Below are positions 33,763 through 37,876 of a stretch of 64,000 nt of DNA, one piece after another. The notes below the pieces were generated by a model. It saw nothing but the letters and a program-made list of their open reading frames with translations. It ran no database searches and was not told the origin of the DNA. Position 1 is the first letter of the stretch, and each line of letters begins with the position of its first letter. Location of the stretch: contig JANQGY010000015.1 in the NCBI GenBank assembly GCA_028282845.1, positions 155,207 to 219,206 of the forward strand, read 5' to 3'. The translations under genes were made by a program, and so were the position numbers. The stretch is from a bacterium. Its GTDB lineage: Bacteria; Fidelibacterota; Marinisomatia; Marinisomatales; JAHJCW01.

Positions 33763-33763
33763 G

Positions 33764-33848
33764 TACCCGGGGTCGGACTCGAACCGACACGGGTTCATCA
33801 CCCAAGGGATTTTAAGTCCCTTGTGTCTACCAATTCCACCACCCGGGC
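33764..33848 (-). tRNA. tRNA-Leu(TAA)
   Basis: GCCCGGGTGGTGGAATTGGTAGACAC-AGGGA-CTTAAAA-TCCCT, variable arm, GGTTCGAGTCC. Confidence 0.96.
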
Positions 33849-33857
33849 AAAATCGCG

Positions 33858-33931
33858 AGGCGTCGGCCGGATTCGAACCGGCGAATGACAGTTTTGCAAA
33901 CTGCTCCCTTAGACCGCTTGGGTACGACGCC
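33858..33931 (-). tRNA. tRNA-Cys(GCA)
   Basis: GGCGTCG acceptor stem, GCAGT-TTGCAAA-ACTGT, GGTTCGAATCC, U73 discriminator. Confidence 0.95.
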
Positions 33932-36178: not shown

Positions 36179-36234
36179 ATGATCCTCATTAGTAGTTATT
36201 GTCTTTATGACAGTTAATAATGATAATAGTTGTC

Positions 36235-36308
36235 AAAAAAAAGCTACCAATTGGAGCTTTTTCCCGAGCGGGAGACGAGGGTTCCCGATTCATCGGGACG
36301 ACAACCAC
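36235..36308. repeat. Duplicated tRNA-Gly 3' end + terminator, T-arm segment replaced by TCCCGAT-TC-ATCGGGA hairpin
   Basis: Matches 36571-36636 at 336-bp offset (CCGAGCGGGAGACGAGGGT and CGACAACCAC identical). Confidence 0.9.
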
Positions 36309-36562
36309 TATTGCTTCCTTGAAGTATTAATTAATCGTTCTAAATAATCTCGGCTCTTTTGCTTTTTAAGTTTTCTTTCAAATCTAATAGCTGCTGATTT
36401 TGATTGAAATTCTTTTACATATTTCACAATCCATGGAATTCCTGATTTTGTTGATTTAGACCAACCATTGTTATGTCGTTCTAATCTTCTGACAATATCT
36501 TTAGTATAACCGATATAATATTTATCAATTTTTTGTGAGTATATGATATATGTAAAATACAT
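36308..36562 (-). CDS. Stand-alone GIY-YIG nuclease (UPF0213/Slx1-like)
   Basis: YFTYII...YYIGYT..RRLERHN...PW...A...E..LK. Confidence 0.92.
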   Translation of the reverse strand: MYFTYIIYSQKIDKYYIGYTKDIVRRLERHNNGWSKSTKSGIPWIVKYVKEFQSKSAAIRFERKLKKQKSRDYLERLINTSRKQ

Positions 36563-36570
36563 GATTATAT

Positions 36571-36598
36571 AAAAAAAGCTACCAATAGGTGGCTTTTC
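36571..36598 (-). terminator. Terminator after tRNA-Gly
   Basis: AAAAGCCACC-TATT-GGTAGCTTTTTTT (one mismatch in stem). Confidence 0.7.
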
Positions 36599-36602
36599 TC
36601 CG

Positions 36603-36674
36603 AGCGGGAGACGAGGGTCGAACTCGCGACAACCACGTTGGCAACGTGGAGCTCTACCACTGAGCTACTCCCGC
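36603..36674 (-). tRNA. tRNA-Gly(GCC)
   Basis: GCGGGAGTAGCTCAGTGGTAGAGC-CCACG-TTGCCAA-CGTGG...GAGTTCGACCCTC-GTCTCCCGCT. Confidence 0.96.
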
Positions 36675-36763: not shown

Positions 36764-37876
36764 TTAAAACTGCTTTCCCGCCTCAAGTAAAACGCTATCA
36801 ATATAATCCTGCATTTCTCTATCATAATCCATTGCTTGCGGTAATGGCACGATCCGACATTCACTGCGATTTATTGCGGTTGCAATTTTGCCTTCAAGCT
36901 CTATCACCTGTTTCTCATAATTTTCAATTTGTTTTAGTACCGTCGGATTATTGGCGTATTTTTCTTCAAGAGTTTGACCTTCTTCGGTTTCCTTCAATCT
37001 TATTAACTGTCTTGTATAACTTGCTATCCGGTTATTATAAGCAGATACATCTGTTATCAGTTTTGATTCATCAATTATGTTCGCTTTAATTTCAATTAGA
37101 TATTTCCCATTCAGACCAATCGTATAAAAAATTGGTAAATCATCTTTTTGGATATTACCTGTTCGGGTGTTCATCACTGTTCTACTCAAAAATACATAAT
37201 CGGCTTTTTGAAACGAATTAAGTATAACGTCACGATTATTGATCATACCATTCACTAATATAATTAATATGTCAACATCCGTTCTGATTTCTTCAATATA
37301 CTTTTGTCCTTCCGCAAGATAATCTAATTTATAGAGTTCCTTAATGTCTCCGGATAAATTATCGGTAACGCCGATAATACCCATCTTCAAATCATTTTTT
37401 TCTATGACAATATATGGATCAAAGGCCGGTTGGCCGGTTTCAACCAAGTATAGATTTGCCGATACAAACGGGACGGAAGTATTTTGCTCAAGTTTCTTTA
37501 GAAAATCATACCCACCGGCAAGATCATATTCGCCAATGTTCAACGCTGCACAACCGATTTTTTCCATCCCATGCAAAAAAGATTTTGCTTTAAATTGTTC
37601 AGTAGGTACTTTGACAACCGGATATTTGATCTGCTCGAAAAGCGCGTCTCCGGCATCAATAATAATGGGATCAATCCCATTATTCCTCAAAGAATTTATA
37701 TAAGCTGATTTTCTGGACAGACCGCCCAATTTGTTGGATTGTCATCCGCAAAGATTAAATTCAGCCCGTACATTTCCGGTAACGATTAAATCAACGCTCT
37801 TTCCCTTTTCAGCAAAAATGAAAGTGGAAATTATAAATAAGAAATAGAGTCCGATTTTAATTGTTTTAATCTTCAA
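36764..37876 (-). CDS. UshA-like selenoprotein (C-G-U motif; in-frame UGA at 37742-37744)
   Basis: TTG start at 37876 with GGAGG RBS; signal peptide; ...GNVRAEFNLCG-TGA-QSNKLGGLSRK continues in frame into the 5'-nucleotidase-like domain (IIDAGD, PFVSANL); SECIS-like hairpin follows. Confidence 0.88.
37713..37729 (-). promoter_or_regulatory. Putative bacterial SECIS element
   Basis: UUGGGC-GGUCU-GUCCAG hairpin; the apical GGU lies 18 nt after UGA. Confidence 0.75.

Follow-up and report, generated by a model that had tools for sequence, protein, structure and literature searches.

We analyzed a 64,000-nucleotide (nt) stretch of contig JANQGY010000015.1 (assembly GCA_028282845.1, a bacterium of the phylum Fidelibacterota; hereafter, the window), in which a 336-bp element with a gene for a small GIY-YIG nuclease lies next to a tRNA-Gly gene. 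Read on the minus strand, the locus consists of an intact tRNA-Gly(GCC) gene, a terminator-like hairpin (T1), an 84-amino-acid (aa) open reading frame (ORF), a remnant of the tRNA 3' part that carries a palindromic hairpin, and a second terminator-like hairpin (T2) (Table 1). An earlier note, made from the letters of this DNA, had described the same layout, and ARAGORN, the ORF and Pfam assignments, and the repeats bear it out. The complete genome assembly (G000) comprises 2.26 Mb in 19 contigs.

Table 1. Features of the tRNA-Gly locus in window coordinates
Feature	Position	Strand	Basis or remark
tRNA-Gly(GCC), intact host gene	36602..36674	-	ARAGORN
Terminator-like hairpin and T-run, copy 1 (T1), between tRNA-Gly and ORF	36571..36601	-	imperfect
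84-aa single-domain GIY-YIG nuclease gene	36308..36562	-	ORF and Pfam PF01541
Left tRNA-remnant piece GTGGTTGTCG, linear tRNA positions 39-48	36299..36308	-	exact 10-nt repeat
Palindromic hairpin TCCCGATGAATCGGGA, 16 nt, in place of 8 nt (CGAGTTCG) of the T arm	36283..36298	.	sequence, folding
Right tRNA-remnant piece ACCCTCGTCTCCCGCTCGG	36264..36282	-	exact 19-nt repeat of 36600-36618
Terminator-like hairpin and T-run, copy 2 (T2)	36233..36263	-	runs on into TTGACAAC and the gene for the M3 peptidase, like the empty sites of relatives

Comparison of the intact tRNA gene with its remnant revealed several features of the element: (i) the tRNA-derived pieces of 10 and 19 nt are exact, and the repeats of the cassette are spaced by 335-336 nt, (ii) the right piece consists of the last 17 nt of tRNA-Gly plus 2 nt, and includes the last base of the T-loop region, the 3' strand of the T stem and the 3' acceptor strand, (iii) the hairpin starts 10 nt after the nuclease stop codon and occupies the place at which the intact tRNA has its 8 nt of T arm, (iv) the G of the stop codon TAG (36310-36308) is at the same time the base with which the remnant begins, and (v) the ATG lies 8 nt downstream of the T-run of T1, with no purine-rich stretch ahead of it. 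The T-arm replacement, the one-base overlap and the start codon without a ribosome-binding site had all been reported correctly in the earlier note. Its perfect 7-bp hairpin has to be revised, as such a stem would leave a 2-nt loop; either strand of the palindrome folds into a stem of 6 bp and a loop of 4 nt. Its two terminators are present as stretches of hairpin and T-run (86% alike over 28 nt; DNA fold of T1 -6.1 kcal/mol, z -3.2), but both are imperfect and weak, and a consensus terminator scan called neither. Its statement that integrase and transposase genes are missing holds for the part surveyed: no integrase, transposase or recombinase family was found in the 10 neighboring ORFs of at least 120 aa scanned between 29.7 and 43.8 kb (13 such ORFs lie at 29-44 kb), and the only ORF inside the 336 bp is the GIY-YIG gene, with no recombinase gene between the tRNA repeats.

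The orthologous site was located with a 2.4-kb query in all seven other genomes of the genus. The same tRNA-Gly gene is present in each of them, followed by a single terminator, and in none is there a GIY-YIG ORF behind it. In G003, G004, G005 and G007, the terminator leads into TTGACAAC-like DNA and the M3 peptidase gene known from the window; different DNA follows it in G001, G002 and G006. Because all seven relatives lack the gene, and four of them have the tRNA, one terminator and the same peptidase gene, the cassette is a lineage-specific 336-bp insertion and the only difference from the nearest relatives at this site. Two marks of free-standing homing endonucleases and mobile endonuclease ORFs (mORFs) are thus found here, presence/absence polymorphism at the same site (seven of seven relatives empty) and a duplicated gene end that keeps the host gene whole (an intact tRNA plus a remnant of 10 and 19 nt). 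Genomic islands also duplicate the 3' part of their target tRNA, and the locus could be the leftover junction of an integrase-borne island that once resided in tRNA-Gly and was later deleted. We give next to no weight to this explanation, as it is contradicted by the empty sites with flanks collinear to those of the window, by the lack of an integrase in the scanned neighbors, and by the recurrence of the GIY-YIG-only unit in more than 50 loci (see below); only 336 bp lie between the repeats. As a separate observation, an extra segment of about 70 nt (GATGCAAAGTGTGTAGCC...GAGGAATACACAA) stands between tRNA-Gly and the terminator at L037, L043/L046 and L044 (G007, G001, G002); the remaining genomes of the genus lack it.

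Seven public sequencing runs contain at least part of the stretch; four of them (X1-X4) were compared as contigs, and X5-X7 contain small shares. In X1, X2 and X3, the cassette forms a separate 355-nt contig (36264-36618) that consists of the 336-nt unit and the 19-nt repeat, with the repeat at both ends. Its depth is 46.6 in X1 (flanks 23.2 and 22.9), 56 in X2 (flanks 34.3 and 27.9), and 62.7 in X3 (flanks about 40 on the left, with two haplotypes summed, and 31 on the right). The contig graph presumably rests on 31-letter words, and a 19-nt repeat alone should not break such a graph. Since the contig breaks exactly at the 19-nt repeat and has double depth, as a tandem duplication predicts, the assembly probably collapsed two tandem cassette copies into one; the assembly may have been built from X1 and X2, and these two are not independent. 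In X3, the cassette contig has one fixed difference and both flanks have two haplotypes, with one contig of a diverged haplotype ending at 36282. In X4, which comes from another study, a 290-nt piece with 7 differences extends from the ORF start across T1 and the tRNA into the DNA upstream.

The 84-aa protein matches the Pfam GIY-YIG family PF01541 over residues 1-71 (E 1.6e-16; 60.8 bits versus a cut-off of 22.6), and no NCBIfam family was found above its cut-off. Residues Y5, Y16, G18, H30, T38, P43, E62 and K66 are invariant in 22 homologs, and conservation at R26 and N31 is 90% or higher. In the AlphaFold model (pLDDT 93.1), three strands were observed at residues 2-9, 14-20 and 44-52. The protein thus has the domain match, the catalytic Tyr/Tyr/Arg/His/Glu set and the three-stranded sheet with helices that characterize the GIY-YIG superfamily. 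The catalytic domain fills all 84 aa, and the extra DNA-binding domain of Seg-type enzymes is lacking. Among solved folds, the best matches include the UPF0213 protein BH0048, nuclease domains of Slx1, HIGLE and the catalytic domain of I-TevI. A sequence search of the PDB returned UPF0213 and Slx1 only (1zg2 at E 8.3e-6), so that UPF0213/YhbQ-type proteins (PDB 1zg2, 1ywl) and the Slx1 domain are the closest solved relatives by both sequence and fold (TM about 0.6, 30-35% identity). Slx1 is a structure-specific nuclease that acts with the partner Slx4; we know of no tRNA or hairpin context reported for UPF0213 or Slx1.

Pfam GIY-YIG matches in the same genome are limited to UvrC and two small genes, of which the second (C8:75414-75638) encodes a protein 49% identical to that of the window. 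This gene ends 3 nt ahead of an intact tRNA-Pro(CGG). In front of the gene stands a 5' pseudo-copy of the tRNA, with a hairpin-bearing 22-nt insert in its D loop and TCCCGACGGGTCGGGA instead of its anticodon arm. Two further remnants have no nuclease gene. One is a 5' tRNA-Pro pseudo-copy with two hairpin inserts (C13:271996-272070), located about 50 nt upstream of an intact tRNA-Pro(TGG); the other (C17:237897-237990) consists of the start of tRNA-Val(CAC), GGGCGATTAGCT, followed by TCCCGATAAATCGGGA, about 80 nt upstream of an intact tRNA-Val. Both tRNA-Pro remnants have the same 22-nt D-loop insert, yet their isoacceptor-distinguishing bases match those of each one's own neighbor, which suggests gene conversion or a reproducible insertion process.

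The hairpin is dispersed in this genome. The sequence TCCCGATNNATCGGGA was found at 11 sites versus none for the reversed control, and the loose pattern CCCGA-N3-6-TCGGG at 42 versus 3; the raw counts overstate the family, because about ten of the 42 matches are ordinary terminators of the form AAAGCCCCGA..TCGGGGCTTT. The palindrome occurs in both orientations and also outside transcription units of the nuclease type. A second set of repeats, TGTCATT-hairpin-AATC, counts 36 copies versus 1 for a control seed, and GTCATTCC..GGAATC counts 19 versus 0. Some of the TGTCATT repeats read TGTCATTCCCGCGAAAGCGGGAATC, nearly the consensus CGTCATTCCCGCGMAVGCGGGAATCYRG of the Neisseria NTS hairpin given in the main text of Chenal et al. 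(Nat Commun 2025, PMC11893778), and some of these NTS-like repeats carry the cassette hairpin either as their palindrome (TGTCATTCCCGATTTAGTCGGGAATC) or nested in the loop. NTS-like repeats are thus seen in an uncultured marine genome from a phylum distant from Neisseria (e.g., C17:128258, C13:238748, C5:46145, C11:45904; none in the window), and some copies have long nested inserts in their loops. One match of the 16-mer, in 23S rRNA (C10:190918-190933), was considered as an insertion and rejected: it is the native tip of a variable helix, because variants with compensatory changes are present in 13 relatives, including G005, which has no homolog by protein query.

We counted the loose hairpin in the eight genomes of the genus, with the reversed pattern as the control. 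Beside the genome of the window, small GIY-YIG genes are present in G001 (26 hairpins, control 0), G002 (19, control 2), G006 (7, control 1) and, interrupted by one stop codon, G007 (26, control 1). The genomes without such a gene are G003 (3, control 3) and G004 (2, control 3), in both of which a Pfam search found UvrC only, and G005 (2, control 1), in which none was found by the protein query, the only search applied to it. Within the genus, the counts thus exceed control level solely in genomes with a small GIY-YIG gene. The window protein, used as the query against 41 genomes of the order (its own included), detected homologs in 26 genomes of the order and in four of the eight in the genus. 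The G007 gene was missed by this query and found by the Pfam search, which also found two small genes in G015. Across the 41 genomes, the hairpin count and the small gene are correlated with a Spearman rho of 0.66, with kin that are not independent. Homologs in the order are often multi-copy, some have stop codons, and pairs or triplets are spaced by 300-440 nt.

This link between nuclease and hairpin resembles the Ssn family. According to the main text of PMC11893778, SsnA of Neisseria meningitidis (94 aa, single domain, cd10448) binds the NTS hairpin as single-stranded DNA only and cuts a few nucleotides upstream of it, and the substitutions Y6A, Y17A and E64A abolish cutting; thousands of Ssn homologs have hairpin repeats at their flanks, and NTS-ssnA-NTS is arranged much like an insertion sequence. 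The window protein shares several features with this family, as far as that text describes it: (i) it is a single GIY-YIG domain of about 90 aa, and Y5, Y16 and E62 match Y6, Y17 and E64 of SsnA, (ii) a hairpin repeat adjoins the gene, is dispersed in the genome, and tracks the gene in number, and (iii) the hairpins have a common core, TCCCG..CGGGA, while near-consensus NTS repeats occur in the same genome. The difference is that here the gene is nested in a duplicated tRNA and the hairpin stands in for a tRNA arm; in the main text of PMC11893778, the word 'tRNA' occurs 0 times. Repetitive extragenic palindromes (REP) and their RAYT or IS200/IS605 enzymes are alike in that dispersed palindromic hairpins are recognized as single-stranded DNA by a small enzyme encoded nearby, an analogy that Chenal et al. 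draw for Ssn themselves (PMC11893778); they differ in using an HUH tyrosine transposase instead of a hydrolytic GIY-YIG enzyme and in having no tRNA nesting.

At the loci retrieved from the order, the gene is nearly always directly behind an intact tRNA on the same strand (Gly-GCC, Pro-CGG, Ala-GGC, Asn, Met, Ser). At six tRNA-Gly loci (L007, L010, L011, L012, L018, L019), 10-13 nt of tRNA, beginning at positions 37-40, come after the ORF; the T arm then gives way to TCCCGA-N3-5-TCGGGA, and the final 17 nt of the local tRNA follow unaltered. For tRNA-Pro and tRNA-Ala, the D loop is where the remnant begins, and the hairpin occupies the place of the anticodon arm. Some loci also have complete pseudo-tRNAs upstream, in which as many as three arms hold hairpins (two at L015, three at L017), and the whole unit forms tandem arrays at L007, L015 and L019. 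At these loci, the cassettes appear to follow one plan, namely a single-domain GIY-YIG gene with the hairpin G|TCCCGA-loop-TCGGGA|A 5-16 nt past its stop codon, inside a partly duplicated tRNA gene, and apparently one rule, by which the junction lies in a loop and the next arm is exchanged for the hairpin (the T arm in tRNA-Gly and tRNA-Asp, the anticodon arm in tRNA-Pro and tRNA-Ala).

To cover a broader range, species-representative genomes were searched with a profile from an 8-row alignment, which yielded 80 loci (L048-L127) from Cloacimonadota, Balneolaceae/Gracilimonas, Neomarinimicrobiota/Fidelibacterota, Ignavibacteriota, Bacteroidota and a few other groups, with Gracilimonas halophila, Rhodohalobacter halophilus, Fodinibius sediminis and Aquimarina rubra among the named carriers. 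A same-strand tRNA ends within 150 nt upstream of the gene in 53 of the 67 loci that have at least 160 nt of left flank (24 Gly-GCC, 12 Pro-CGG, 9 Asp-GTC, 6 Ala-GGC, 1 Val and 1 Ala-TGC), and the gap between the two is 1-11 nt in 16 of these 53. A CCCG..CGGG hairpin is located between -30 and +100 of the stop codon in 58 of the 73 loci whose right flank reaches 100 nt or more, against a background of 12 in 101.5 kb of DNA more than 400 nt away from the gene. With one layout shared by dozens of unrelated genomes, the arrangement is more than a chance one. The stem pairs of these 58 hairpins were tallied without demanding pairing. The outer pair is T-A in 54, C-G in 3 and A-T in 1 (paired in 58 of 58, 4 double changes); the fifth, inner pair is A-T in 51, C-G in 5, T-A in 1 and unpaired in 1 (paired in 57 of 58, 6 double changes). 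Because the variable pairs stay paired through double changes, both the sequence and the pairing of the stem are, by this tally, conserved, the latter via compensatory changes. In a maximum-likelihood tree of 98 proteins, the tRNA type changes 10 times on 65 labeled tips versus a mean of 30.5 (minimum 25) in 1000 shuffles; thus, the nuclease tree follows the tRNA type. At 13 of the 80 loci, the contig ends less than 160 nt before the gene, which suggests that the cassettes often break short-read assemblies.

This distribution bears on the possibility that the gene is a domesticated host gene co-transcribed with tRNAs, e.g., for a repair or RNA-processing nuclease, and that the tRNA fragments are by-products of local duplications. 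Domestication was proposed for Neisseria SsnA by Chenal et al. in the main text (PMC11893778); the intact reading frame with all catalytic residues agrees with it, and the short gaps to the tRNA suggest a shared transcript. We nevertheless consider it improbable for the present gene, since the occurrence is patchy in both the order and the genus, the orthologous sites are empty, and there are stop-codon copies, tandem copies and different tRNA hosts within one genome; the fragments, moreover, are not randomly decayed, as one whole arm is exchanged for one defined hairpin.

The remnant itself might act as RNA, either as a tRNA-like 3' element or as a small RNA partner of the protein, the second of which had been offered as an alternative in the earlier note. 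Its 3' T stem and acceptor strand are kept exactly although the adjacent terminators have diverged, and it is likely transcribed with the nuclease gene. Still, it has no 5' acceptor strand, and ARAGORN calls no tRNA there; the hairpin is palindromic and is found in both orientations and outside such transcription units; and SsnA did not interact with RNA according to the main text of PMC11893778. We regard an RNA role as very improbable, and found no support for the small RNA partner.

A related question is whether the enzyme could be a free-standing homing endonuclease of the Seg type that cuts tRNA genes as double-stranded DNA, with the hairpin as a mere mRNA-end or terminator stem. SegB has a separate DNA-binding part. 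It is a T-even phage GIY-YIG protein encoded in tRNA clusters, with a statistical association to tRNA genes; it reportedly makes double-strand breaks, cuts tRNA-containing sequence and drives tandem amplification of the tRNA and segB segment via short homologies or microhomology, and its description in the text of PMC13096335 includes neither a hairpin partner nor hairpin-swapped tRNA remnants. The present cassettes resemble it in the placement beside tRNA genes and in the tandem arrays, and in most loci the hairpin is directly behind the stop codon, as a terminator stem would be. However, the 84-aa protein has no DNA-binding domain, the stem is conserved in sequence as well as in pairing, and the hairpin is also present where no mRNA ends, i.e., in the ORF-less tRNA-Pro(TGG) and tRNA-Val remnants, in three arms of the pseudo-tRNA at L017, and in the loops of NTS-like repeats. 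A Seg-type enzyme therefore seems unlikely to us.

In architecture, the locus matches the fungal mitochondrial mORFs, which insert themselves into a gene, supply it with a substitute for its 3' end and turn the native end into a remnant, as in Allomyces atp6 and in Glomus atp6, atp9, cox2 and nad3 (as described in the text of PMC3630166). The same order of gene core, duplicate 3' end, endonuclease ORF and displaced native 3' end, the functional host gene, and the ORF-less alleles in relatives are shared with the tRNA-Gly locus; the host here is a bacterial tRNA, the ORF encodes an 84-aa GIY-YIG protein instead of the approximately 1-kb LAGLIDADG ORF of Glomus atp6, and the displaced end is remodeled by a defined hairpin and does not simply decay (PMC3630166). 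The cassette would thus be best read as an Ssn-like single-domain nuclease with its cognate hairpin, built in the manner of a fungal mitochondrial mORF, a likeness drawn from sequence and layout.

We assign a probability of roughly 0.6 to the interpretation that the 336-bp insert belongs to a widespread group of selfish, tRNA-nested cassettes that encode an Ssn-like hairpin nuclease and spread by recombination at tRNA homology. The nuclease would bind its own hairpin in single-stranded DNA and, as in the Ssn family, cut a few nucleotides upstream. Within the cassette, cleavage would be expected where cassette and remnant meet, and in a naive tRNA gene, within the loop that precedes an arm. From the start of the remnant to the hairpin there are 10 nt, a distance of the same order as that of the SsnA cut in the main text of PMC11893778. 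The break would be repaired by recombination with a cassette-bearing copy, for which the conserved tRNA sequence would supply the homology, and only products that restore a whole tRNA would survive. Unequal recombination between the tRNA-derived repeats may give rise to tandem arrays. The nuclease gene is probably transcribed from the tRNA promoter, and with 16 of 53 ORFs only 1-11 nt behind a tRNA, the read-through proposed in the earlier note is plausible.

The exchange of exactly one arm for a hairpin, and that of NTS-like loops, falls outside these steps of cutting and repair. Tentatively, and with less confidence than in the selfish cassette as such, we propose that the hairpin-swapped remnant may be the nuclease's own single-strand site on a tRNA scaffold. 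tRNA genes would be attacked while single-stranded, during replication or heavy transcription; the enzyme would bind an arm-like hairpin and cut about 10 nt upstream in the preceding loop, repair would copy in the cassette, and the same activity would convert arms of spare tRNAs and NTS-like loops to the hairpin. Cutting at hairpins of tRNA arms would account for a junction in the anticodon loop of Gly and Asp cassettes, whose T arm is exchanged, and in the D loop of Pro and Ala cassettes, whose anticodon arm is exchanged.

Most of what the earlier note had anticipated agrees with the selfish-cassette interpretation. The proposed co-occurrence of hairpins and short GIY-YIG genes was found in the genus counts and across the 41 genomes, and the REP-like character of the hairpin is visible in its dispersal and its tie to those genes. 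The opposite situation, a gene fixed in synteny without tRNA remnants and a hairpin found nowhere else, is contradicted by the empty sites and by the dispersed, gene-linked hairpin. The connection of the cassette with tRNA genes recurs in 53 of 67 loci, empty sites exist in all seven relatives in the genus, and the expected tandem copies are seen as arrays at three loci and suggested by the depth in the window. As regards its selfish element, the minimal insert, the stand-alone GIY-YIG enzyme, the link to tRNAs, the empty sites in relatives and the arrays have held up; cutting of tRNA genes by the nuclease, nick-primed duplication and an immunity role of the hairpin are conjectural. Three points are absent from the earlier note: the core that the hairpin shares with the published NTS and SRM hairpins of Ssn nucleases, the mORF-like layout, and the exchange of whichever arm comes after the junction.

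Several observations weigh against the interpretation as a selfish hairpin-nuclease cassette. The SRM pattern of PMC11893778, HGTCWYN(0-2)YYVSBRHN(0-5)WNVSBRGN(0-2)RNCYNB, has 3 matches in the genome, none of them at the cassette, versus 2-4 in five simulated genomes; by eye, the tRNA remnant misses it at two positions. The nearest solved structures are those of UPF0213 and Slx1, with no Ssn structure among the nearest matches. G036 has 35 hairpins and UvrC as its sole GIY-YIG gene. In the broad sample, a tRNA within 150 nt upstream is absent at 14 of 67 loci and the hairpin at 15 of 73, the clustering by tRNA type could partly reflect vertical descent, and the closest homolog found is only 60% identical to the window protein, which leaves no candidate donor. 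T1 and T2 share derived features, which favors local duplication over an imported tRNA end. The intact tRNA beside the gene would stay a target if natural arms were cut efficiently. Finally, with respect to the reads, the double depth fits the tandem copies that the earlier note had suggested to look for, but no contig in X1-X4 joins across the cassette as an empty-site allele would, and none of the seven public runs with part of the stretch is recorded as RNA.

The genes around the cassette are ordinary and include those for the M3 peptidase, a DinB-type polymerase, a PfkB kinase and a DeoR regulator, among others. Upstream of tRNA-Gly, a 321-aa ORF (36764-37729) has no Pfam match at E 1e-5, yet is conserved in the genus. 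The window has two tRNA pairs on the minus strand, tRNA-Leu(TAA)/tRNA-Cys(GCA) at 33763-33931 and tRNA-Ser(GGA)/tRNA-Ser(TGA) at 1928-2123. A Cys-Leu tRNA pair is also located downstream of the tRNA-Gly cassette at L011, in another family.

A literature search, which for PMC11893778 and PMC13096335 covered the main text (supplementary tables of the former might list such loci), returned no account of small GIY-YIG genes in a nested position at tRNA genes of bacteria, but only mitochondrial, phage and unrelated papers; a search for 'GIY-YIG' together with 'YhbQ' found no paper. Single-domain GIY-YIG proteins of small size abound and for the most part lack annotation, and the Ssn branch has only recently been shown to cut single-stranded DNA at hairpins. 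On the practical side, the cassettes create pseudo-tRNAs and break or collapse assemblies, and their nuclease-hairpin pairs are a resource for single-strand DNA tools. The locus and its relatives point to a natural role for these proteins, that of a minimal selfish cassette that resides inside tRNA genes without killing the tRNA. If the hairpin-directed attack on tRNA genes tentatively proposed above is true, it would represent a new mode of homing, in which DNA hairpins do the guiding that otherwise falls to a DNA-binding domain, and the large class of Ssn/UPF0213-like proteins would gain a natural role as parasites of tRNA genes.

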